Positions 9,583-52,574 are shown, counted from the first letter of the stretch. The stretch is 64,000 bases of DNA from an uncultured Bacilli bacterium (GCA_934155645.1 CAKPHC010000004.1:81220-145219), one strand, 5' to 3'. Notes: generated from the sequence alone by a model not told the origin. Numbers and translations are program-made.

Positions 9583-9781
9583 TACAAGTAATCAAGAAAA
9601 CTTTAAACAATATAATAAAAATAATAATATGAGAAAAAATATAGGTCCTGTTATAGAATATGATAATGAAGGTAATATCATATCTTGGAATGGTAAACCT
9701 ACTGTATCAGAACCTATGAGTAAAGAAGAAATAAAAGAATTAGAAGCATTAATAAATGAAATAACAAAAGGAGATGAATAA
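9470..9781 (+). CDS. Overlapping +1-frame ORF; plausible C-terminal continuation of the 9256 gene across an A8 tract
   Basis: This ORF overlaps the previous one in a different frame. An A8 homopolymer at about 9548-9555 is where the two frames could be joined by a 1-nt indel. Confidence 0.25.
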   Translation: MVILFYSMIRKKKIISKEKLWYQKYSKKRISDIQKNLNTSNQENFKQYNKNNNMRKNIGPVIEYDNEGNIISWNGKPTVSEPMSKEEIKELEALINEITKGDE

Positions 9782-9991
9782 TTAATTGGTTAACAAAGTC
9801 ATACATTATAAAGAGGTGACTTATGTTTAATATAAAAGAAACATTTAAAAAAGATTCTCCTGATTTAATCTTGTTGATAACTAATTATATAAAAAGTGTG
9901 ATGAATAATGTGTAGAACGATGGCGATATATTGTATTTTTATGGTACAATATATTTGGCTTTAATATGTTATACATAAGAAAGGAGTATAA

Positions 9992-11581
9992 ATGTATAAC
10001 ACTTTAATACAGATGCCAGAGTTTTACAAAGCAGGAATATATATAAGATTATCTGAAGCAGATGAAGGGAAAGCTTACGAATCTGATAGTGAGAGTGTCC
10101 TTAATCAAAGAAATATGCTAATGAATTTTGTAAAAGAAAAGAGTTTTATCTTTGTAGGAGAATATGTTGATGATGGTTTTTCTGGTACTGATTTTGATAG
10201 ACCGGGATTTAACAAAATGATGGAAGACATCAAAAATAAAGTTATCAATCTTGTAATAGTAAAAGACTTATCAAGACTTGGGAGAGATCATGTTATGACT
10301 GGATATTATGTGGAAACGTTCTTCCCTGAAAATGGAATAAGATTCATTTCTATGCAAGAAGGTTATGATAATGCTTTAAATCAAGCAAGTAATGATTCTT
10401 CAACCTTTATAATAGCTTGTAATGATTACTATAGTAAACAAAACTCAGTTAAAATAAGGAATGTTTTAAATGATAAAAGAAAAAATGGTAAGTTTATTGG
10501 TAGTGCTCCAAGTTATGGTTTTTTAAGAGATCCGGAAGATAAAGGGCATTTAATACCAGATCCTGAATATGCACCAGTAGTTAAGAAAATATTTGATATG
10601 GCATATAAAGGAGTAGGCTTATCCGAGATAACAACTTATCTAAATGATAATAAGATTAAAACACCAAGTAGTCTTAAAAGAAAAAATGCTCATGCTAATA
10701 ATAAATATAATCCAATGTGGACTATATCTTCTGTAAAAAAAATTCTTAAAAATCAAATGTATGTTGGTGATATGGTTCAAAGTGTTCAAACTAAAGTGTC
10801 TTATAAATCAAAAAAGAAAAAGGCATTACCTAGAGCAAATTGGAGTATTGTTAAAAATACTCATGAACCTCTTGTTGATAGAGTTATATTTGAAAAGGTT
10901 CAAAATAATGTTAAAAGGACTAATGTTACTAATAATACAAAAAGAGAAAAAAGACTATTTGAAAATTTGTTATATTGTAAGGAATGTGGTAATACATTAA
11001 CTATTATTTATAGGAAAAATCATGACTATTGGACTATTAATTGTAATAGATATTCGAGAGATCCAAAAAGAAAAATGTGTTATCCACATTTTATGCCTTA
11101 TGATAAGCTAGAACAAGCATTATTAGATGTTATTAAGGGTACTTGTAAAAAATATATAGCCGCTATTAATGTATCCAATATAGCAAGTGAGATTAATAAT
11201 AAGAAAAGAAATGATTCTAAGCTAAAGGAAAAAATAAATGAGTTACAGAATAAAGAAAAAGAATATCTAAGTAAATTGGATATGCTTTATGAAGATAAGT
11301 TTAAAGGCATAGTATCAGATGAAATGTATAAAAGAATAGCAAATGATACAGAAGTTTTACTAACTAAATTACGTAGTGAAATAAATAAATTAAGAGCAGA
11401 TACAAAGGTAATTAAAAATAAGACTGATGATTTAAAATGCTATGAAGATAAAATAAAATCTTTAATTGATATTGAAAATCCTACAAGAGAATTAATGCAA
11501 ACTATTATTGATAAAATAGTTATAGATAAAGATAAAAATATTGAAATAATTTACAAATTTAGTATATTAAATAATATTTAA
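9992..11581 (+). CDS. Large serine recombinase (resolvase/invertase N-domain + recombinase domain + zinc ribbon + coiled coil)
   Basis: Resolvase catalytic region (YIRLSEAD ... VKDLSRLGRD), a Cys-rich zinc ribbon (CKECGNTL ... C ... C) and a C-terminal coiled coil. Length is 529 aa. An AAAGGAG RBS precedes the start. Confidence 0.9.
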   Translation: MYNTLIQMPEFYKAGIYIRLSEADEGKAYESDSESVLNQRNMLMNFVKEKSFIFVGEYVDDGFSGTDFDRPGFNKMMEDIKNKVINLVIVKDLSRLGRDHVMTGYYVETFFPENGIRFISMQEGYDNALNQASNDSSTFIIACNDYYSKQNSVKIRNVLNDKRKNGKFIGSAPSYGFLRDPEDKGHLIPDPEYAPVVKKIFDMAYKGVGLSEITTYLNDNKIKTPSSLKRKNAHANNKYNPMWTISSVKKILKNQMYVGDMVQSVQTKVSYKSKKKKALPRANWSIVKNTHEPLVDRVIFEKVQNNVKRTNVTNNTKREKRLFENLLYCKECGNTLTIIYRKNHDYWTINCNRYSRDPKRKMCYPHFMPYDKLEQALLDVIKGTCKKYIAAINVSNIASEINNKKRNDSKLKEKINELQNKEKEYLSKLDMLYEDKFKGIVSDEMYKRIANDTEVLLTKLRSEINKLRADTKVIKNKTDDLKCYEDKIKSLIDIENPTRELMQTIIDKIVIDKDKNIEIIYKFSILNNI

Positions 11582-11643
11582 ACTTTGCTCCTTTTGGAAC
11601 AAAGTAAACATAGAATAGATGAACTACTTATAGGGGGGACAAA

Positions 11644-12495
11644 ATGGAAGAAAAAGATATGATATTTATTGAACAATTAGTAAAGACAAATTTTGTAAAA
11701 CCAATGAGAAGATATATAAAGAAATATTTAAAGAATTTATCTGTTACAGAAAATATTAGCATTGAAACAATCAATTTATTGCAACAGGCTAATAATACAA
11801 TTAGTAATGTTTATAAACTTTTAAGAAAAAAAGACTTAGTTGATTCTGCAACGTTGATGCGTTCTTGCATGGAAAAAATAATGATGTCAATGATGATATA
11901 TTTTGATCCAAAGAATACATTTGAAGAATTTAAGAATTTAGAAAAATGTGGCAAAACAGATAATACACGCCCTACTGCAATACTAAAGAATTTTAAATTT
12001 AAATTAAAAGAGATTAACTCTATTTTATTTGAAGAATTTGAAGATGATGAATTACAATTACTGTTGGAAGAGACTTATGAAAAATTATGTTTATATACAC
12101 ATAGCTCAATTGTAGTTAGTATGATGATAGAAGTAAATAGAAACAAAGATGAGGATTTATTTGCTTTATATTTTTATCTGATTGCTTATTTTTTAGAATT
12201 ATTAATATATTCATCTTTAAAATATTTAATTGCTGACAAAAAAGATCATATAGATGCTTTTTGTATATTTATGGGATTTGTATTATTGTGTTCAAAAGTA
12301 GACAAAAATAAATTAACTGAAGATTATACTAATAAATATAAAGAATATCTTCATTGGGAGATTAATGAACATTTTTCAGATAAATATAAAGGTATATTAG
12401 AAAAAATGAAAATTGATTGTTCAATTTTACAACAAGAGATAAATGAAAATAAAAAAGTAATTGAAAATTATATAATGGATTTAGCAAAAAAATAA
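11644..12495 (+). CDS. Hypothetical protein, cargo gene at the element edge
   Basis: 283-aa ORF with a G-rich RBS (TAGGGGGGACAAAATG). No recognisable motifs. It ends 16 nt before the amidase fragment begins. Confidence 0.5.
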   Translation: MEEKDMIFIEQLVKTNFVKPMRRYIKKYLKNLSVTENISIETINLLQQANNTISNVYKLLRKKDLVDSATLMRSCMEKIMMSMMIYFDPKNTFEEFKNLEKCGKTDNTRPTAILKNFKFKLKEINSILFEEFEDDELQLLLEETYEKLCLYTHSSIVVSMMIEVNRNKDEDLFALYFYLIAYFLELLIYSSLKYLIADKKDHIDAFCIFMGFVLLCSKVDKNKLTEDYTNKYKEYLHWEINEHFSDKYKGILEKMKIDCSILQQEINENKKVIENYIMDLAKK

Positions 12496-12511
12496 AAACG
12501 TTACACAATGA

Positions 12512-13648
12512 CCATCACCAGGTGGCGAAGGCGCTGAAGTAGTCTATGCTCTTCGCAACGACCCAACATTAGCTAACAGTATTCTTGAAGAAATAGGCTT
12601 AGAAGGTCAAAAAATACGTAAGGCATATCAAAGAAGATTACCTGAAAATCCATCAAAAGATTATTACTTCATTCAAAGACTAACTGGTGATACAGAATCA
12701 TTACTTATCGAGTACGGCTTTATAGACAATCCTAACGATTTAAAAAAGTTGCAAAACAATTTACTTGACTATGGTGAAGCCGTAGTAAAGGCTGTTGCTA
12801 ATTACATTGGAGTACCATATACTGCACCAGATGGTTCTAACTATAACACATACGTTGTACAAAGAGGAGACTCACTATATTCTATAGCAAATAAATATGG
12901 AGTTACAGTTGATGAACTTAAATTTGCAAATAACCTAACATCTAATCTCTTAACTATAGGCCAAAGATTAACGATTCCTAAATTACCAGCCGATAATACT
13001 ACTCCAGGTGATTATATAGTTTATACTGTTCAAAGTGGTGATACTCTATATAAAATAGCTAACCAGTACGGAACATCAGTCAACGACATAATAGAATTTA
13101 ATCAATTACCAACTACTGTATTAGTTATAGGACAACAACTATTAATCCCAAATTCAAAATCAAGTCAAAATAATACATATACAATTAAAAGAGGAGATTC
13201 TTTGTGGAAAATAGCAAACGAGTATGGAGTAACTGTTAATGAACTAATCCAAGCGAATAATTTAAATACAACTACTTTAAAAGTAGGAGATGTACTTATC
13301 ATTCCAAGTAAAAATCAGTCAAATGCTCCATTACCATCACAACCAGAAGATAACGTAATTGAATATGTGGTTCGTCCAGGTGATAGTCTATACAGCATTG
13401 CTTTAAAATATGGAATAACTCCAAACGAATTGCAGTCATATAATAACCTTGCATCTACATTATTAGTAGTAGGGCAAATACTTAGAATTCCTACTACCGA
13501 AAATTATGTTACATACTATGTTAAACCAGGTGACAGTTTATATAACATAGCAAGAGCTAATAACACAACAGTTGATGAAATAAAAGCTCTTAATGGACTG
13601 ACCTCAAATACATTAAGTATAGGGCAATTACTAATATTACCTAAATAA
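12512..13648 (+). pseudogene. 3' fragment of N-acetylmuramoyl-L-alanine amidase (Amidase_3 C-terminal half + 5 LysM repeats), 5' part missing/disrupted
   Basis: The frame is open from 12512 (PSPGGEGAEVVYALRND ... LLIEYGFIDNPNDLKKL) and matches the C-terminal half of the Amidase_3 domain. There is no ATG, GTG or TTG start before the TTG at 12749. Five LysM repeats follow (YVVQRGDSLYSIANKYGV...). Confidence 0.65.
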
Positions 13649-13651
13649 TCA

Positions 13652-13678
13652 AAAATCTACACATCGTAGATTTTTTAC
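13652..13678 (+). terminator. rho-independent terminator after the amidase/LysM gene
   Basis: Stem ATCTAC / GTAGAT with loop ACATC, followed by TTTTTT. Confidence 0.65.
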
Positions 13679-13759
13679 TTGCCTAAAATTATAAAAAGAT
13701 TAAATGAGTTATTGTTTATTAATTTTTATTGTGCTATAATACTTACATACCTAGCAAAT

Positions 13760-13833
13760 AGGGGCGTAGTTAAATGGTATAATAATGGTCTCCAAAACCA
13801 CTGTTGGGAGTTCGATTCTCTCCGCCCCTGCCA
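13760..13833 (+). tRNA. trnW: tRNA-Trp (anticodon CCA)
   Basis: The sequence AGGGGCGTAGTTAAATGGTATAATAATGGTCTCCAAAACCACTGTTGGGAGTTCGATTCTCTCCGCCCCTGCCA has a cloverleaf with anticodon loop CTCCAAA and an encoded CCA end. It is near-identical in architecture to Bacillus tRNA-Trp. Confidence 0.9.
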
Positions 13834-13890
13834 TTTGAATATTCGAACTATATAGTTCTTTTTTTTATAAATGAAAGGAGAAACTTATCC

Positions 13891-14142
13891 ATGCGAAATC
13901 TTGAAGGAATAAAAATAGTAGAAGTTCCAGAAAAAGAAATTGAGTCATCATCAATAAGAGTTTCTGATATTGATACTCCGGATGACTACGAAAACTTCAG
14001 ATTAATTGAAAAGGACAAATTATTAAAATTAAAAGAGCAGCTAGAAGAAGCACAGTTTTATGATAGTTGTGTACCAAAGGCTCAAGTAGAAGAGGAATAT
14101 AAGTCAGAAAACTATGATGATTGTGGAAAAAAATCCATGTAA
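13891..14142 (+). CDS. Small acidic hypothetical protein (83 aa)
   Basis: An internal ATG carries a good AAAGGAG RBS. The track ORF starting at 13804 would overlap tRNA-Trp. Confidence 0.4.
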   Translation: MRNLEGIKIVEVPEKEIESSSIRVSDIDTPDDYENFRLIEKDKLLKLKEQLEEAQFYDSCVPKAQVEEEYKSENYDDCGKKSM

Positions 14143-14199
14143 AATAAAAAATACCATATACAAAATAGGTATTTTTTTTTACGCTTGATATGAACCAAT

Positions 14200-14718
14200 C
14201 TATTTTTTTACTTTGCATAGTATTTTATATGTACCTTCATCTTTGCAACAACTTATCGTTTCAAAAGTAGTATTTCTTGCTAGCAAGAATTCATTTTCGT
14301 GTTCCATTGAAGATATATATTTAATATAGGCTCCTCTTACCTTAGGTTCTAGCAAAATCTTAAGTTTAACGTTAGAGGCTTCACCGTATAAGCCAGTATT
14401 AGTAGAACAACTTGAATAAGCTTTTTCCAAGAAAGAGCCTTTCTTCACCGAATAAAGATATTTATTAAGCAAGTCACGATTTAAAAACATCAGATTTCTA
14501 TAAACAACTAACTTTCTTCTTAAATCAAACTTAGAAATAGCACTATCAATTGCTAATATTTGCTCTTCAAAAAAGACACGACTAGGGTTATTGCGTCTCA
14601 AACAATTATTTATGTCAAAATGTTCAGCCGTATACGTAAGAATTGCATCCTTTTCAATTTTAGTAAGTTTAACAGGATATATATTTTTAGCATAATACTC
14701 TAAAGACATAACAATCAC
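14200..14718 (-). CDS. ADP-ribosyltransferase (R-S-E class, C3/VIP2-like fold) without signal peptide
   Basis: Arg motif (VVYRNL), STS-like motif (YSSCSTN) and ExE motif (EHENEF). It has its own promoter and an AAGGAG RBS. Confidence 0.55.
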   Translation of the reverse strand: MIVMSLEYYAKNIYPVKLTKIEKDAILTYTAEHFDINNCLRRNNPSRVFFEEQILAIDSAISKFDLRRKLVVYRNLMFLNRDLLNKYLYSVKKGSFLEKAYSSCSTNTGLYGEASNVKLKILLEPKVRGAYIKYISSMEHENEFLLARNTTFETISCCKDEGTYKILCKVKK

Positions 14719-18475: not shown

Positions 18476-18519
18476 TGCTTTAGAATTACATTTATGATAT
18501 AATTCTCCTAGGTGAGATT

Positions 18520-19530
18520 ATGAAAGAAGTATATTCAAATAAAATAAAAGAATCTTTAAAATTAGGCAATAGAAGATTGATAATAACAATTATATTAGTG
18601 CTTATGACTATAGGATTTATAGTATGGGCGGTTATAGATAGTCAGAAAGAATATCCAACTCCTAAATATTTAAATAATGTAATTATGGAAGGCAAAAATG
18701 AAGAGGGAGTTTATTCTTGCGTAAATGTTACGGCAATTCCTTATGTTTTTGCTGAAACTTCCACTAACGAAATGGAGAATAAATACTATTTTATCCGCGA
18801 TGACAACTATTTCTATATAGCGTACCTAGATTACAAGACTTTTAGTTCTTTAAATCATGAATCTATTGAAGATAATCCAGTAGCAATATGTGGAATGACA
18901 TCATCAATTGAAAGTAATATAAAACGTCTTGCAATAGAAGTATATAATAGAGATATGGAAAGTGAAGTTGTAAATGATTCAAACTTTAACAATTATTTCG
19001 GTGGTGTATATCTTGATGTTGTTGCTGACGTAAATGATATAACAGTTCAAATATGTCTTGCCATCATAACAGGAGTATTTGCAATAATAATTGGTGCAAT
19101 AACAATCGTATTCAAAACTAAAACTAAGAAATTTATTAAAAATGTAACAGCTGAAGAATGGCAACAAATTAATAATGAAATAGAATCTTCAGATACCAAG
19201 TATTACAAGCAAGCAAAAATATATTTAACTAAAAACTACTTAATAGATTTTTCAAATTGCTTATATGCAGTTAAATATTCTGATATTGTATGGCTATACC
19301 CATATGAATTAAGACAAAATGGTATAACAACTGCCAAAAATTTAATAGTCTTTGACAAATCTTTTACTAAACATACAGTTGCAGGAATAGGAAGTTTAGG
19401 CAAGAAAAATAAACAAATATTTGAAGAGATAACAAATGAAATTCTAAGTAAAAACAAAGATATAATTTGGGGATTTAACAGTGAATCAAAAGAAAAATTC
19501 AAAGAATTAAAGCAAACTAAAAGAGGTTAA
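18520..19530 (+). CDS. Hypothetical membrane protein (2 TM)
   Basis: ORF with a GGTGAG RBS and two hydrophobic helices. A terminator hairpin spans the stop codon. Confidence 0.5.
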   Translation: MKEVYSNKIKESLKLGNRRLIITIILVLMTIGFIVWAVIDSQKEYPTPKYLNNVIMEGKNEEGVYSCVNVTAIPYVFAETSTNEMENKYYFIRDDNYFYIAYLDYKTFSSLNHESIEDNPVAICGMTSSIESNIKRLAIEVYNRDMESEVVNDSNFNNYFGGVYLDVVADVNDITVQICLAIITGVFAIIIGAITIVFKTKTKKFIKNVTAEEWQQINNEIESSDTKYYKQAKIYLTKNYLIDFSNCLYAVKYSDIVWLYPYELRQNGITTAKNLIVFDKSFTKHTVAGIGSLGKKNKQIFEEITNEILSKNKDIIWGFNSESKEKFKELKQTKRG

Positions 19531-19533
19531 ATT

Positions 19534-20655
19534 TTAAAACCTCTTTTTTTCTTTGGCAGTATTTACTTTTTTTAGTATCTTTTCTTTACCATTTAAGAAA
19601 GTGCTTATTGATTCATGATTATTTAGTGCATTTATTATTTGAGTAATATGTTCTGAACAATCTACTTCATTAAACCACTCTAATTTTTTAGTATCTTCTG
19701 GTACATAAGATAAATTTGTTGTATATAAGTTATCAAAAACTTTATTTTCATATGCTCTTTGAAATAATTCAACACTTTTAGGTCCATCACTGAATAATGC
19801 AAATGACGATATTAAATGAATATTTTTAGCACCTTTTTCTTTTAATTTATCTGCAACCTCTAACATAGATTGACCAGAAGAAATCATATCATCTACTACT
19901 ATAGCATCTTTTCCTACAACATCTGTACCAATGTATTCATGTGCTACAATAGGATTCTTTCCATTAACCACACGAGTGTAGTCGCGTCTTTTATTAAATT
20001 GTCCAATATTTGAACCAAGTATATTAGCAAAATACTCAGCTCTATCAGAAGCACCTGTATCAGGAGCAACAATAATTAAATCATCAAAATTAATATTTTC
20101 TTCATCAATGAATTGGTCCAATATTGTATGAGTAAGGTATACATTATCAAATGAACAATGTAGTAGGGCATTTCTAACTCCAGGGTCATGAGCATCACAA
20201 GTAATTATTCTTTTAACTCCTAAAAATTCAAGTTCATGTAACATTAAAGAACAATCTTGGGACTCACGTGCTTTTCTTTTATGTTGTCTTGATTCATATA
20301 AGAAAGGCATAATTACTGTTATAGAGTCACTAGCACCATTCATTGCTGATATAACTCTTTTTATATCTTGATAATGGTCATCAGGACTCTTATGATTTGT
20401 AAACCCATGCATTTGATATGTACAATCATAGTTTAGAACATCAGATAAAATATAAACATCTTTAGCTCTTATTGATTCTTCTATTACCGCTTTGGCTTCA
20501 CCGCTTGAAAACCTAGGTAAAGAATTAGGAACAATAAAACTGAATCGATCATCATTAATTTCTCTCATCAGTTTTAAGTGCCCATCGACTTTTTTTCCAA
20601 AGTCTAAAAAATTATCCATTACAATTAAACGTAAATTATTAGATACTAACTCCAT
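19534..20655 (-). CDS. Ribose-phosphate pyrophosphokinase (PRPP synthetase)-family protein, divergent long form
   Basis: PRPP-binding loop (VVDDMISSGQS) and a CDAHD motif. The start was reassigned to the ATG preceded by AATGGAGG. Confidence 0.65.
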   Translation of the reverse strand: MELVSNNLRLIVMDNFLDFGKKVDGHLKLMREINDDRFSFIVPNSLPRFSSGEAKAVIEESIRAKDVYILSDVLNYDCTYQMHGFTNHKSPDDHYQDIKRVISAMNGASDSITVIMPFLYESRQHKRKARESQDCSLMLHELEFLGVKRIITCDAHDPGVRNALLHCSFDNVYLTHTILDQFIDEENINFDDLIIVAPDTGASDRAEYFANILGSNIGQFNKRRDYTRVVNGKNPIVAHEYIGTDVVGKDAIVVDDMISSGQSMLEVADKLKEKGAKNIHLISSFALFSDGPKSVELFQRAYENKVFDNLYTTNLSYVPEDTKKLEWFNEVDCSEHITQIINALNNHESISTFLNGKEKILKKVNTAKEKKRF

Positions 20656-48109: not shown

Positions 48110-48574
48110 ATGAGGCTTGATATAATTGATGATGATAGTTATAAGATATTTATTAACAGCAATTATATAGAAGATATAGATGTAAAAAATAAAGATGAAC
48201 TGGGTAAAATAGTTAAAGAAATAATTATAAAAATTAAGAATATATATAATATAATGTTAGAAGGCTTTTATGAAGTACACGTATATCCATTAAAATATCT
48301 TGGAATAATACTAGAAATAAGAAATATAGATAATTATTTAAATAAAACAGTAGACCTTAGAATAATTGTTCATAATGATGAAGAAATATATATTAATATA
48401 TATCTTTTAGAGTTAATAAAGAATTATAAAAATATTAAGTATTTAAACAATTCTTTTTATTTAAATATAAATGATTTGAAAAAAGAAGATGTCTATTCAC
48501 TAATAGAAAGTTCTAATATTATTTATGGAGAAGAACTTTCCAACATTAAATCTCATTGGCACAATTTGACATAA
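48110..48574 (+). CDS. Hypothetical protein
   Basis: ORF with no recognisable motifs. Confidence 0.4.
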   Translation: MRLDIIDDDSYKIFINSNYIEDIDVKNKDELGKIVKEIIIKIKNIYNIMLEGFYEVHVYPLKYLGIILEIRNIDNYLNKTVDLRIIVHNDEEIYINIYLLELIKNYKNIKYLNNSFYLNINDLKKEDVYSLIESSNIIYGEELSNIKSHWHNLT

Positions 48575-49040: not shown

Positions 49041-50345
49041 ATGAAATTACCAGTAATCGCACTAGTAGGTAGACCAAACGTTGGTAAAAGTACAATTTTT
49101 AATAAAATAGTAGGTAAAAAGATATCTATAATAGAAGATACTCCAGGTGTTACTAGAGACAGAATTTATAGTGAAGCTACTTACAAGAATTATCGATTTA
49201 ACGTAATTGATACTGGTGGTATAGACGCTTCCATAGAAAAATTTAATGATGAAATTAAAATGCAAGCAGAAATTGCAATAAATGAAAGTGATGTTGTTAT
49301 TTTTGTTGTAGATGGTAAAGAAGGCCTTACATCAAATGATTTAATAGTAAGAGATATTTTAAGAAAAAGTAATAAAAAAGTAATAGTTGCTATTAATAAA
49401 GTTGATAATAAAAAAGCTAATGACCATATATATGATTTCTATGAATTAGGTTTTGATATATATATTCCAATTAGTGGTGAACATGGAATTGGATTCATGG
49501 AGTTAATGGATGAAGCTACAAAAGACTTTAACGAAAAAGAAGATAAAGAAGATAAAAGATTAAAATTTTCAGTTATAGGTAGACCAAATGTAGGTAAAAG
49601 TAGTCTAATTAATGCTATGTTAAATGAAGAACGTGTAATAGTAAGTGATGTTGCAGGTACTACAAGAGATGCAATTGATACAATTCTTACATATCAAAAA
49701 GAAGAGTTCGTAGTAATAGATACAGCAGGAATGCGTAAAAAAGGAAGAATTTACGAAAACGTAGAAAAATATAGTTTATTAAGAAGTATGAAAGCTATTG
49801 ATAGAAGTGATATATGTCTATTAGTTATCAATGCCGAAGAAGGTATTATTGAACATGATAAACATATAGCAGGATACGTTCTTGAAAAAGGTAAAGGACT
49901 TATAATAGTTGTTAATAAATGGGATACTGTTGAAGACAAGAAAACTATTAAAGATTATTTAAAAGAGGTACGTAGTGAATTTCAATTCTTATCATATGTA
50001 CCAGTAATATTTACTTCAGCATTAACTAAAAAAAGAGTTCATACAATTATGCCAGAAGTCTTAAAAGTAAGTGAAAATATTAAACGTGAAATTAAGACTA
50101 GTGTATTAAACGATGTGATTCAAGAAGCATACTTATTAAATTTACCACCTTCATATAAAGGCAGAAGATTAAAAATATATTACGCTAATCAAACAGGAGT
50201 TAAACCTCCTAAATTTACGTTCTTTGTTAACAGTAAAAACTTAGTTCATTTCTCATATGAAAGATATTTAGAAAATAAATTAAGAGAAAACTTTGAATTA
50301 GAAGGTACTCCAATAGTATTACAATTTAAAAATAGAAACGAATAA
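49041..50345 (+). CDS. der: Ribosome biogenesis GTPase Der (EngA), double GTPase + KH-like domain
   Basis: Two G-domains (GRPNVGKST and GRPNVGKSS). Confidence 0.9.
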   Translation: MKLPVIALVGRPNVGKSTIFNKIVGKKISIIEDTPGVTRDRIYSEATYKNYRFNVIDTGGIDASIEKFNDEIKMQAEIAINESDVVIFVVDGKEGLTSNDLIVRDILRKSNKKVIVAINKVDNKKANDHIYDFYELGFDIYIPISGEHGIGFMELMDEATKDFNEKEDKEDKRLKFSVIGRPNVGKSSLINAMLNEERVIVSDVAGTTRDAIDTILTYQKEEFVVIDTAGMRKKGRIYENVEKYSLLRSMKAIDRSDICLLVINAEEGIIEHDKHIAGYVLEKGKGLIIVVNKWDTVEDKKTIKDYLKEVRSEFQFLSYVPVIFTSALTKKRVHTIMPEVLKVSENIKREIKTSVLNDVIQEAYLLNLPPSYKGRRLKIYYANQTGVKPPKFTFFVNSKNLVHFSYERYLENKLRENFELEGTPIVLQFKNRNE

Positions 50346-50388
50346 CAAAAATAGGCTTCTTACATATAATTATGTAGGAGGTTTTTTT

Positions 50389-50628
50389 ATGTTTGGAGAT
50401 TCTTTTTTCAATAAGGTAGAGAAAAAAACAAAAGTAAATAAGGAAACTATTATGTCTTTAGCATCTAAAGTTCAAAAATCAGATATGAAAGATGAAAAAG
50501 TACTGCGTGATTTAATTAAAGAGATAAGTGGAATAGCAGGAAAAGAGGTAAGTGAAGAAAAAACCAATAAAATTATAAATGCGATTGTTCAAGATAAAGT
50601 ACCTAAAAATTTAGATGGAATGTTATAA
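50389..50628 (+). CDS. spoVIF: Stage VI sporulation protein F-like
   Basis: FFNKVEKKTKVNKETIMSLASKVQ ... DEKVLRDLIKEISGIAGKEVSEEK resembles SpoVIF (FFKNIEKKTGV ... DEKTVR ... AGKPVS). Confidence 0.6.
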   Translation: MFGDSFFNKVEKKTKVNKETIMSLASKVQKSDMKDEKVLRDLIKEISGIAGKEVSEEKTNKIINAIVQDKVPKNLDGML

Positions 50629-50717: not shown

Positions 50718-52193
50718 ATGGATAAACATGAAATAATTAAAAACATTGCAGAACGTACAGGAGGAGATATTTATCTTGGAGTAGTAGGAGCGGTAAGAAC
50801 GGGTAAAAGTACTTTTATAAAGAAATTTATCGAAACTTTAGTTGTTCCTAATATTAAAGATGAATATGAAAGAAAACGTGCATTAGATGAAATACCACAA
50901 AGTTCTAGTGGTAAAACAATAATGACAATTGAACCTAAATTTGTTCCTAATACTGCTGCTAAGATAGATATAGATGATTTTAGTTGTAATATTAGGTTAA
51001 TTGACTGTGTAGGTTATGTTATTAATAATGCTAAAGGTGCTGAAGATGAAAATGGACCTAGAATGGTTAAGTGTCCTTGGTACAACGAAGAAATACCGTT
51101 TGTTGAGGCAGCAGAATTAGGTACTGAGAAAGTTATAAAAGACCATTCTACTATAGGTATTGTAGTTACTACTGATGGTTCTATTGGGGAATTTTCAAGA
51201 AATGATTACTTAGAAGCTGAAACTAGGGTAATTAGTGAACTTAAAGAGTTAGGTAAACCATTTATAGTTATCTTAAACTCTACACATCCAACATTACCAG
51301 AAACAGAAAGATTAGCAGAATCATTAAAAGAAGAACATAATGTACCTGTAATTCCAATCAGTATTGAATCTATGGGCGAAAAGGATATTTATAATATCTT
51401 ACGTGAAGCATTATATGAATTTCCAATATTAGAAGTTAAAGTAAATATGCCTGAATGGATTGCTATTTTAAATAGTAAAAATCCTATTAAACAAAGTTAT
51501 ATCAACAGTATTAAAGAAAGTATTGTGGAAGTAGATAAATTAAGAGACATTGAAAATATTACTAAACATTTCTTAGATAATGAGAACATTGAGAAAGCTT
51601 ATTTATCTAACGTTGATCCATCAACAGGTGAAGTAATTGTATCGTTAGAAGCACCATGTGATTTATATAATAAAGTTTTAACTGATATAATTAAAATAGA
51701 TGTAAAAAATAAAGCTGAGTTATTATCGTTGTTCCAAGAATATAATGAGGCCAAAACCGAATATGACCAAATTAAATATGCTTTAAAGATGGTAAAACAA
51801 ACCGGTTATGGAGTAGCATCTCCTACTTTAGCTGATATGAAATTAGATACACCAGAAATAATTAAACAAGGTTCTCGTTATGGTGTTAAACTAAAAGCAG
51901 TAGCACCATCTATTCACATGATAAGAGTAGATGTTCAATCAACATTTGAACCTATAATTGGTAGTGAACTTCAAAGTAAAGAACTAATCAATTACTTAAT
52001 GAAAGATTATGAAACTAATCCATCTAATATATGGAAAAGTGAAATATTTGGACGTAGTCTAGATGTTATAGTCCAGGAGGGTATTCAATCTAAAATATCT
52101 TTAATGCCTGATAATGTAAGATATAAGTTAAGTAATATACTAAGTAAAGTAGTAAATAAAGGTTCTAATAACTTAATTGCTATTGTTATTTAA
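50718..52193 (+). CDS. spoIVA: Stage IV sporulation protein A
   Basis: N-terminus DIAERTGGDIYLGVVGAVRTGKSTFIKKFIE is nearly invariant in SpoIVA. Confidence 0.9.
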   Translation: MDKHEIIKNIAERTGGDIYLGVVGAVRTGKSTFIKKFIETLVVPNIKDEYERKRALDEIPQSSSGKTIMTIEPKFVPNTAAKIDIDDFSCNIRLIDCVGYVINNAKGAEDENGPRMVKCPWYNEEIPFVEAAELGTEKVIKDHSTIGIVVTTDGSIGEFSRNDYLEAETRVISELKELGKPFIVILNSTHPTLPETERLAESLKEEHNVPVIPISIESMGEKDIYNILREALYEFPILEVKVNMPEWIAILNSKNPIKQSYINSIKESIVEVDKLRDIENITKHFLDNENIEKAYLSNVDPSTGEVIVSLEAPCDLYNKVLTDIIKIDVKNKAELLSLFQEYNEAKTEYDQIKYALKMVKQTGYGVASPTLADMKLDTPEIIKQGSRYGVKLKAVAPSIHMIRVDVQSTFEPIIGSELQSKELINYLMKDYETNPSNIWKSEIFGRSLDVIVQEGIQSKISLMPDNVRYKLSNILSKVVNKGSNNLIAIVI

Positions 52194-52301
52194 TAAAAGC
52201 ATGTAAAATAATGAAAAATTCGTTGCTTTTGTACTGAAAACATGATATTTTATATATGTAAGCATATAGTGCTTAAAAATAAATACGGAGGTAATAATAT
52301 T

Positions 52302-52574
52302 ATGAAAAAAGTAGAATTAGTAGAAGCTGTTGCAACTGCTACAGGATTAACAAAAGCAGATGCTACAAGAGCAATCGATGCTACATTTGCTACAATTACA
52401 GGAGCATTAGCTAAAGGAGATAAAGTACCACTAGTTGGATTTGGAACATTTGCAGTTTCAAAAAGAGCAGCTCGTGAAGGACGTAATCCTCAAACTGGTG
52501 CTACAGTTAAAATTGCAGCTAGAAATGCTGTAACATTTAAAGCTGGTTCAGCATTAAAAGACGCAGTTAATTAA
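52302..52574 (+). CDS. hup: DNA-binding protein HU
   Basis: MKKVELVEAVA ... GFGTFAVSKRAAREGRNPQTG, 90 aa. A GGAGG RBS precedes the start. Confidence 0.9.
   Translation: MKKVELVEAVATATGLTKADATRAIDATFATITGALAKGDKVPLVGFGTFAVSKRAAREGRNPQTGATVKIAARNAVTFKAGSALKDAVN

Follow-up and report, generated by a model that had tools for sequence, protein, structure and literature searches.

Why does a gene for a peptidoglycan amidase begin in the middle of its catalytic domain, directly behind a block of genes that includes a large serine recombinase? The question is raised by a stretch of 64,000 nucleotides (the window; GCA_934155645.1, CAKPHC010000004.1:81220-145219) from an uncultured, low-GC gut bacterium of the class Bacilli, which is strongly AT-rich (GC content ∼25%). 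A preliminary description of positions 9,992 to 13,648, made from the sequence alone, had proposed that a recombinase-bearing mobile element inserted into, and truncated, the amidase gene. As laid out below, an element with the geometry of a reversible insertion almost certainly does interrupt this gene. Beyond that, we favor, with a probability of roughly 0.55, the reading that it is a gene-intervening element of the kind represented by skin, SPβ, and gin: in the mother cell, its recombinase and the product of a micro-ORF would cut it out, and a late mother-cell amidase would thereby be rebuilt.

The window contains the 3′ part of a divided amidase gene

The reading frame that encodes the LysM repeats is open from position 12512 to a TAA stop codon (13646-13648) and is preceded by an in-frame TGA (12509-12511). 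Its first in-frame ATG, GTG, or TTG is the TTG at 12749, with none other ahead of the LysM region, and gene callers report a TTG-initiated open reading frame (ORF) of 299 amino acids (aa). Residues 6-96 of the open frame align to positions 85-173 of the 174-position Amidase_3 profile (Pfam), which means that the window encodes no more of the catalytic domain than its C-terminal half; five LysM repeats follow (E = 2.4e-84, Pfam). All of this agrees with the preliminary description, whose estimate of at least 80 missing N-terminal codons can be replaced by a count of 85. The fragment possesses neither a start codon nor a Shine-Dalgarno (SD) sequence of its own and is 98% identical to a full-length protein (P0001); an intact conspecific allele (P0133) comprises 461 aa. 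An ORF of 283 aa (11644-12495) stops 16 nt ahead of the point where the LysM frame opens, and the first codons of that frame (encoding PSP) are derived from the element rather than the host, because the element arm of the attachment site attR (see below) spans 12500 to ∼12520.

12523..13648, + strand: 3′ fragment of the LysM amidase gene (native codons 86-461), encoding the C-terminal half of Amidase_3 with the conserved IEYGF glutamate, then five LysM repeats
13652..13674, + strand: AT-rich hairpin (AAAATCTAC/GTAGATTTT) followed by a T run, read directly in the sequence

The hairpin is probably the terminator of the amidase gene; a terminator scan missed it because its stem contains too few G-C pairs.

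The 5′ half lies at the other end of a 13-kb element

A contig from a Hadza gut metagenome, identified by exact-protein look-up, matches the window (L002; window position 1 is L002:5994). It contains, on the same strand and 13.15 kb upstream, the 5′ fragment of the amidase gene, an ORF of 90 aa with an Amidase_3 match (L002:5105-5377; reading MDYKIVVDAGHGG…LSNHINSGGGEG up to its stop codon). This fragment sits outside the window, 888-616 nt to the left of position 1, and thus where the preliminary description had expected it, at the other end of the element. The two junctions and the intact target define the attachment sites as follows, a slash marking the joint.

1..12522, + strand: right-hand 12.5 kb of an integrative element of 13,151 bp (length computed from the attL and attR cores), the left end of which, attL, is 628 nt before window position 1 (L002:5364/5365)
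L002:5364/5365: attL, …AAATTCAGGAGG/AGGAGAAGGTTAATGTGTAAC
12500..12544, no strand assigned: attR, GTTACACAATGACCATCACCAGG/TGGCGAAGGCGCT…, composed of the element arm GTTACACAATGACCATCACC (12500-12519), the shared core AGG (12520-12522) with the predicted crossover GG (12521-12522), and then the host arm
Intact alleles: attB, …AAATTCAGGAGGTGGCGAAGGTGCT… (sequence taken from L008 and L009)

Only AGG is common to attL, attR, and attB. The element is joined to the gene at the GG within the codons for HINSGG/GEGAE, which moves the junction ∼10-25 nt to the right of the interval of ∼12496-12511 given in the preliminary description. The reconstructed attP of 44 bp (GTTACACAATGACCATCACCAGGAGGAGAAGGTTAATGTGTAAC) has GG at its exact center and 8-bp terminal inverted repeats, and its 20-nt half-sites match at 16 of 20 positions in our alignment of the attL, attR, and attB sequences. 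Short sites of imperfect dyad symmetry with a central 2-bp crossover and no long target duplication are the layout expected of a large serine recombinase, and a second element of which both ends are readable (L034/L010) shows the same geometry.

Joining attL to attR at the GG in silico yields the expected rejoined attB (…AAATTCAGGAGGTGGCGAAGGCGCT…) and an ORF of 461 aa that differs from the intact conspecific P0133 at three residues; precise excision would, thus, restore the reading frame. Empty sites exist in nature. In two conspecific alleles from other samples (L038 and L039), the 461-aa gene is whole, follows the upstream genes also seen in L002, and has identical synteny; the flanks of both alleles are 97.4-99.2% identical to those of the window strain and align to L002 1-5373 plus 18513-19789, skipping the element exactly. 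An empty attB is likewise present in L008 and L009. The element is also more AT-rich than its surroundings, as had been noted for the recombinase block (22.6% GC versus 27.5-27.7% in both flanks), and ENA and Logan samples yielded independent assemblies of the same junction on at least 18 contigs. As the 5′ half was found, the att sites align, and the empty-site alleles of conspecific strains skip the element exactly, the insertion is real. The claim that a mobile element truncates the amidase gene therefore stood up to the recovery of its 5′ half, att sites, empty site, and rejoined ORF.

The position of the joint has consequences for the protein. According to homology with solved Amidase_3 enzymes (C. 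difficile Cwp6, CwlD) and established knowledge of the fold, the zinc ligands (H of GHGG, E of the EKD motif, and H of SNHIN) should fall in the 5′ fragment, and the catalytic glutamate (IEYGF) and the wall-binding repeats in the 3′ fragment. Neither fragment should be active alone because the split would part the zinc ligands from the catalytic glutamate and the LysM repeats.

The element encodes a recombinase, a micro-ORF, and defense cargo

The following features were assigned to the element, from left to right.

1..3748, + strand: 3′ part of a gene for a 1,291-aa P-loop (GSNGIGKT) protein, the gene beginning 368 nt before the window (L002:5866-9741)
4008..4610, + strand: AbiEi-like gene (PADLOC AbiEi, 1.1e-54)
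4623..5459, + strand: Fic-domain gene (PADLOC PDC-S72, 9.6e-80; Pfam Fic)
5475..7409, + strand: fused double D12 adenine methyltransferase gene (Pfam MethyltransfD12, two copies; PADLOC MTase_II, 1e-127)
7399..8955, + strand: AlwI-like endonuclease gene (Pfam RE_AlwI; PADLOC REase_II, 1e-148)
9256..9781, + strand: HTH_36/DnaD_N-like core gene (Pfam HTH_36), present here as two overlapping ORFs
9800..9808, + strand: CATACATTA, a σE/σK-like −10 motif, 4 nt upstream of the SD sequence of the micro-ORF (GAGGTGA, 9813-9819)
9823..9915, + strand: 30-aa micro-ORF (MFNIKETFKKDSPDLILLITNYIKSVMNNV), a candidate recombination directionality factor (RDF)
9942..9950, + strand: TGGTACAAT, an extended −10-like element ahead of the recombinase gene
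9992..11581, + strand: large serine recombinase of 529 aa (Pfam Resolvase, 1.7e-21; Recombinase, 1.2e-24; Zn_ribbon_recom, 1.2e-10)
11644..12495, + strand: 283-aa ORF with a weak DUF5677 match

The recombinase has all three parts of a large serine recombinase, a Resolvase domain with the serine nucleophile, a Recombinase domain, and a zinc ribbon. R19-L20-S21 are invariant in an alignment of nine family members, and the closest solved catalytic domain is that of TnpX (1.2e-21); to characterized recombinases as a whole, the relationship is only distant. The element at 9942-9950 has TGGTAnAnT-like counterparts in related elements, and we infer that it drives the recombinase gene.

An ORF of 30-37 aa, 59-82 nt upstream of the recombinase gene, was present in 11 of 11 related elements examined and, in addition, in L124. 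It shares the pattern ..F/I-K-DL-I..Y-I/L.. and belongs to no Pfam or PADLOC family. A hidden Markov model built from it matched, among 131 loci, only this element family; among 77 IMG/VR loci with distant recombinases (≤37% identity), it recovered only a family member (L045) and a non-adjacent match (L123). Ahead of the micro-ORF, CATAnnnT was found at the matching place in the same 11 of 11 elements and in L124 (12 of 12), 4-5 nt before the SD sequence, in the forms CATACATT, CATACACT, CATAAAAT, CATAGAAT, CATAAATT, CATAAGAT, or CATAGTCT; no σ70-type match was called at 9800-9808. The micro-ORF would thus be a candidate for the RDF gene, as its precedents in SPβ and gin suggest (see below). 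The 283-aa ORF was also considered for this role, or as a core gene, and was rejected: its homolog adjoins attL in L034 but lies downstream of the recombinase in L003 and L033, and as its position varies among elements it was treated as cargo.

The cargo is directed against phages. Positions 5475-8955 encode what by family matches is a type II restriction-modification pair, and relatives of the element carry type I restriction-modification systems, type II methyltransferases, PDC-S01, a ThsA-like STALD protein, a TIR protein (PDC-S73), and a MazG-like protein, further an SLFN-like helicase, Mrr-nSTAND3, a reverse transcriptase with an LlaJI-type endonuclease, and HEPN. As defense genes were recognized by PADLOC or Pfam in the element of the window and in eight relatives, with variable cargo, the elements are small recombinase-borne anti-phage defense islands. 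A prophage was considered and rejected: no phage Pfam domains were found among the element genes, a megablast search of 9000-14200 against 50,697 phage records returned no match, and identity between the recombinase and phage integrases does not exceed 35%.

Some genes of the element deserve separate mention. The 1,291-aa P-loop protein matched nothing in Pfam or PADLOC. Its conservation reaches 99% between two elements that otherwise differ in cargo, and it may be an undescribed STAND-like defense NTPase. A 110-aa ORF belongs to no Pfam or PADLOC family. The HTH_36/DnaD_N-like gene is broken by one extra A in a poly-A tract (9548-9556; eight A versus seven in L003 and L013); its homologs of 160-189 aa lie upstream of the recombinase in L003, L010, L013, L018, L033, L035, and L023. 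The frameshift could be due to a real pseudogene, to slippage, or to a sequencing error. This gene, the micro-ORF, and the recombinase gene form the core module that the relatives have in common.

The same dinucleotide is used across species and by several recombinases

When one genome per GTDB species was scanned, 25 loci with this amidase were recovered, all of them in uncultured “Bacilli” metagenome-assembled genomes (MAGs) and relatives; the named hosts were Firmicutes bacterium CAG:822, Clostridium sp. CAG:710, “Tenericutes” UMGS, and Erysipelotrichaceae RUG. The gene was split in 14 of the 25 (∼60% of the species representatives), only residues ∼76-87 to 461 being present, and the break was always at …GGT/GGNGAAGG (14 of 14). 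Wherever there was enough upstream DNA (10 of 10 loci), a homolog of the recombinase (48-85% identity) lay on the same strand upstream of the split amidase; the other four split loci were at a contig edge or had too little upstream sequence to judge. Within the 90% protein cluster, truncated forms accounted for ∼41 contigs and the intact 461-aa form for four, among the matches listed.

The identities, and the trees, of recombinases and hosts disagree. L010 and L035 share 98% identity in the recombinase and 63% in the amidase, L011 and L020 97% and 62%, whereas L011 and L014 share 94% in the amidase and 66% in the recombinase; similarly, the left end of the L003 element is 99-100% identical to that of the window, with a host amidase N-terminus of only 56% identity. 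The elements, therefore, move horizontally. Old, vertically inherited insertions were also looked for, and a test for co-divergence of recombinase and amidase found none. Within the species of the window alone, the same GG serves three recombinase lineages with differing cargo.

The same amidase gene is also the target of a second large serine recombinase family, whose members share 28-31% identity with the recombinase of the window. Its joint is just before CATGG(T/A)GG, the codons for the GHGG zinc ligand, near codon 10.

L009:1-960, L023:8335-10060, and L034:7855-10260: second-family insertions

The CAKOWQ01 genome (L034 plus L010) has both amidase sites occupied, so that the gene is in three pieces. 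An ORF of ∼46 aa resembling the micro-ORF is located upstream of the second-family recombinase in L034.

Regulated gene integrity has been proposed to be recognizable from multiple independent integrations by one tight integrase clade into the same domain at the same position (PMC7192596). Here, elements from 14 species and three within-species elements occupy the same GG, with incongruent identities. Even if excision is not developmental, the locus is a clear example of a cross-species landing pad at a conserved catalytic-motif sequence.

One locus was unusual. L026 (7515-12830) contains an apparently intact, shorter amidase (384 aa), followed by ∼3.9 kb of unrelated genes. Beyond these, an attR-like arm (ATTACACAATGACCATCCCCAGGT) is joined to what is left of the amidase 3′ part, 90 aa with an internal deletion; there is no recombinase at the locus. 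The arrangement resembles what a decayed element, or a rearrangement between LysM repeats, would leave behind.

The amidase as a putative mother-cell gene

The window itself contains sporulation genes, located between der (49041-50345) and a gene for HU (52242-52574).

50389..50628, + strand: spoVIF (Pfam SpoVIF, 5.1e-24)
50719..52193, + strand: spoIVA, ATG start, full length (SpoIVA_ATPase, 4.8e-108, plus middle and C-terminal domains)
50344-50371, + strand: motif upstream of spoVIF, AAC-N16-CATATAATT (AATAACA-N14-CATATAATT), 5 nt from the SD sequence
50676, + strand: motif upstream of spoIVA, CATATATT

An orthologous amidase is carried by CAG:822 (L019), and the GTDB genus CAG-822 has been placed in the order RF39 (PMC8035907), members of which are predicted to be thin-walled and spore-forming (PMC10868615, Field et al). 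The assumption of a non-sporulating host, suggested by labels such as “Tenericutes” or “reduced Bacilli,” was, therefore, dropped, given SpoIVA and SpoVIF in the window and the latter study.

The amidase lacks a signal peptide (its catalytic domain begins at residue 5) and is, accordingly, predicted to be cytoplasmic. In relatives with intact loci, it lies in a conserved block of rplM-rpsI … cwlD-like, spoIID-like, Abi_2, HtrA, and amidase genes, with a convergent cwlJ-like Hydrolase_2 gene (142-146 aa) downstream; the cwlD-like neighbor matches TIGR02883 with 192 bits. The N-terminus of the cwlJ-like product resembles that of B. subtilis CwlJ. The best NCBIfam match of the amidase itself was CwlD, with only 72 bits.

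About 5 nt upstream of its SD sequence, the amidase gene is preceded, in nearly all orthologs, by CATAAAATA, CATACAATA, CATACACTA, CATATATTA, or CATATTTTA (seen in L002, L008, L038, L040, L012, L017, L029, L019, L021, L022, L026, and L003), although the surrounding sequence cannot be aligned among the more distant species. In Bacillus, the −10 consensus is CATAnnnTA for σK and CATACAnT for σE; the motif fits the former and, in several cases, the latter. CATAnnnTA with an AATAACA block 16 nt upstream also precedes 15 of 16 cwlJ-like genes. When the window and 27 host loci were scanned (438 ORFs preceded by a ribosome-binding site), CATAnnnTA occurred at −42 to −20 in 25 ORFs, namely 12 cwlJ-like, eight amidase, one cwlD-like, and four others, against a background of ∼1% among the remaining genes. 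Good but indirect evidence suggests that the amidase belongs to a mother-cell regulon.

A general σ70 scan of 9200-13900 was uninformative in DNA this AT-rich (36 sites versus 35.1 expected, and no terminator called). A distal σA-like TTGACA-N16-TAAGAT is present upstream of the amidase in the species of the window; it is missing from the 95%-identical allele L008 and from other species, whereas the proximal CATAnnnTA is kept. Two of the four other occurrences of CATAnnnTA were ahead of a 154-aa protein without a family match (window 48110-48574) and of a collagen-like (GPTGPRG…) repeat protein that recalls exosporium proteins (L021:5064-5720). The motif of spoVIF may serve as a seed for defining the mother-cell regulon of this lineage.

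Excision in the mother cell or permanent disruption?

According to the reading we favor, the amidase would be a mother-cell sporulation gene, whose product is either a lysin like CwlC or a cortex hydrolase associated with the spore; the latter role could be considered because of the cwlJ-like neighbor in relatives. The recombinase would be made from its own extended −10 promoter, and the 30-aa micro-ORF, transcribed from a σE/σK-type promoter, would act as directionality factor, so that excision took place only in the terminally differentiating mother cell. Recombination of attL with attR at the GG would restore the exact reading frame, and the amidase would be rebuilt and expressed in the mother cell while the forespore retained the element. 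For the element, such an insertion site would be a cost-free harbor, which would explain why it is occupied in most genomes.

The state of the divided gene is consistent with this scheme. In each of the 14 split genes, the 3′ fragment can be read through from the joint to the normal stop, and no decayed allele was found among the 14 species and three within-species alleles. Synonymous polymorphism between amidase alleles within the species (pS) was 0.10-0.13, and the ratio of nonsynonymous to synonymous polymorphism (pN/pS) was 0.04-0.05 between split alleles, 0.01-0.04 between split and intact alleles, and 0 for the single pair of intact alleles. These values indicate strong purifying selection on an amidase that is split in most sampled genomes, a combination hard to reconcile with permanent inactivation. 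As a discriminator between split and intact alleles, pN/pS was discarded, since it is low everywhere (0.00-0.05).

Several observations weigh against developmental excision. Spore formation of the host is a genomic prediction for uncultured organisms, and the species of the window lacks the cwlJ-like neighbor of the amidase. The promoter assignments rest on motifs: the −10-like sequences are only 4-5 nt from the SD sequence, which would result in unusually short leaders; the −35 “AC” is ideally spaced in some amidase orthologs only, imperfect in the species of the window, and absent ahead of the micro-ORF; AAC-N16-CATAnnnTW is not enriched in the window (three found versus 3.6 expected, one of them the spoVIF region); and CATAnnnTA overlaps the σA-like TAnAAT. 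Fast turnover of the elements would also leave intact fragments, so that low pN/pS cannot prove selection on the split state. Searches for excision products were negative: the exact attP had no match in IMG/VR, a degenerate attP none in IMG/VR and the JGI metagenomes, and the exact rejoined 461-aa protein was absent from a collection of 15 billion proteins, the intact alleles found differing by at least three residues and stemming from other strains.

The lack of an attP and of a rejoined same-strain allele is what a plain disruptive insertion would predict, by which an amidase that is dispensable or redundant in the gut is knocked out while the element remains in place and excision occurs sporadically, during horizontal transfer, without developmental control. 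Large serine recombinases often integrate inside ORFs, and disrupt domains more commonly than tyrosine integrases do (PMC7192596); a second Amidase_3 paralog (cwlD-like) is nearby, and rapid element turnover alone could account for the intact fragments. Yet the amidase is conserved across species together with its promoter motif, its within-species pN/pS is 0.01-0.05, and, despite the split in ∼60% of the species representatives and the dominance of truncated forms among the listed contigs, not a single decayed allele was seen. Disruption would also leave the conserved micro-ORF with its sporulation-type motif unexplained. We regard it as the main alternative, less likely than excision in the mother cell. 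The extreme version of the objection, that nothing is interrupted and the arrangement is an assembly chimera or a naturally short LysM protein beside an unrelated island, retains next to no probability. It could appeal to the metagenomic origin of the assemblies and to the TTG-initiated ORF reported by gene callers, but is refuted by the 5′ fragment on the same contig, the rejoined 461-aa ORF, and the full-length, empty-site alleles of conspecific strains; the junction recurs in independent assemblies, the open frame contains codons for conserved Amidase_3 residues ahead of the TTG, and the related genomes with this arrangement all carry a recombinase. The gene is, thus, not naturally short.

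The remaining possibility, a reversible switch in growing cells in the manner of “active lysogeny,” by which a signal such as stress or phage attack would toggle an autolysin independently of sporulation, is improbable. Precise reversibility is inherent in the geometry of the att sites, comK of Listeria provides an example of regulated gene integrity outside sporulation (PMC7192596, PMC4191935), and the distal promoter upstream of the amidase looks σA-like. That promoter, however, is the one that is not conserved, no attP-containing contigs were found, and the motif ahead of the micro-ORF is common to the cwlJ-like and spoVIF genes. Moreover, without a signal peptide the amidase could act as a vegetative autolysin only with the help of a holin or of cell lysis.

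Comparison with known gene-intervening elements

A close parallel is gin, a non-phage element in gerE of Bacillus cereus ATCC 10987, which is moved by the recombinase GirC and the 42-aa RDF GirX, a protein without recognizable motif and often left unannotated (PMC5595907). Both are non-prophage elements with a large serine recombinase inside a mother-cell gene (here a putative one), both have a tiny, motif-less ORF as (candidate) directionality factor, and precise excision of both would rebuild the ORF. They differ in target (an amidase instead of gerE), in cargo (anti-phage defense), and in host (an uncultured RF39-like gut lineage).

SPβ interrupts spsM and is excised by SprA and SprB, skin interrupts sigK and depends on SpoIVCA with the RDFs Skr and CD1234 (PMC4191935, PMC5025042). 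The sprA gene is expressed whatever the cell state, whereas SprB, of 58 aa, is made from a mother-cell promoter directly upstream of its gene; the −10 of this promoter is a perfect match, the −35 an imperfect one (PMC4191935). The element of the window resembles both in splitting what appears to be a late mother-cell gene and in having a small candidate RDF gene with a σE/σK-type −10 upstream, separate from the expression of the recombinase; as for sprB, the −10 of the micro-ORF is good and the −35 imperfect. Its candidate RDF is half the size of SprB, and its developmental timing is putative. SPβ and skin are prophages, or remnants thereof, of 48-134 kb, whereas the present element comprises 13 kb and contains no phage genes.

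By the operational definition of Mageeney et al (2020; PMC7192596), the element is also a candidate for regulated gene integrity; the main text of that paper does not contain the word “amidase.” Unlike the candidates of that paper, the present taxa are known as MAGs only, which is why surveys of isolate genomes would have missed them. The interrupted sporulation genes named in the studies consulted are sigK, spsM, spoVFB, gerE, and yabG, all from cultured Bacillus or Clostridium; no amidase is among them.

As to the target, the intact amidase is reminiscent of CwlC. This enzyme of Bacillus subtilis is a σK-dependent, mother-cell lytic amidase composed of Amidase_3 and SPOR repeats. The two have in common an N-terminal Amidase_3 domain, the lack of a signal peptide, C-terminal peptidoglycan-binding repeats, and a σK-like promoter motif; with five LysM repeats in place of SPOR, the likeness is one of architecture. 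As to the cargo, its variability across the family is shared with other defense islands on integrative elements, which, unlike the present ones with their single site inside a sporulation-type gene, are found at tRNA or intergenic hot spots. What is unusual here is the defense cargo, the very high occupancy of the site in an uncultured lineage, and the use of two catalytic motifs of one gene by two recombinase families.

If mother-cell excision holds true, a peptidoglycan amidase would be added to the targets rebuilt by excision during sporulation, and the phenomenon would extend to an uncultured, host-associated lineage for which sporulation is only predicted. That the passengers are defense islands instead of prophages suggests that genes needed only in the mother cell are a cost-free niche that steers the accumulation of anti-phage systems in gut spore-formers. 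A wider proposal, towards which we are tentative and slightly more doubtful than convinced, is that the late mother-cell amidase gene is the preferred safe harbor of a guild of defense islands in an RF39-like, genome-reduced lineage. At least four recombinase lineages would use two motif-coding sites, excision would be confined to the mother cell with an RDF of ∼30 aa (the smallest known), and passage through the spore would be free of cost; this could be a general parking strategy for defense cargo, rather than a peculiarity of some Bacillus and Clostridium prophages, and would let amidases join the developmentally rebuilt genes. Irrespective of this, defined attB/attP pairs are available for several divergent large serine recombinases acting at one crossover site, which could serve genome engineering, and the candidate directionality factor of ∼30 aa is testable in vitro and of possible use for the same purpose.

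Flanking regions

Downstream, the host flank of the amidase is marked by a tRNA gene.

13760..13833, + strand: tRNA-Trp (CCA), predicted by ARAGORN

Where the window has this tRNA gene, one conspecific strain (L128:4023-4967) has a tyrosine integrase and ∼6 kb of small ORFs after the amidase, which suggests a second integration hot spot directly downstream of the gene. Just past the tRNA gene, on the minus strand (14200-14718), an ADP-ribosyltransferase exoenzyme protein of 171 aa (C3/exotoxin-like, E = 6e-19) is encoded; it has no obvious partner gene and is conserved among conspecific strains. Upstream of the amidase, the sequence varies as well (L002:1-4980 versus L008:178-1018 and L040:8778-9890). 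In the species of the window, a BglII-like endonuclease, a 572-aa ORF, a LysR regulator, and a 312-aa protein with only σ70 region 4 lie between HtrA and the amidase, whereas the BglII gene abuts the amidase in the 95%-identical allele L008, and HtrA does so in other species.

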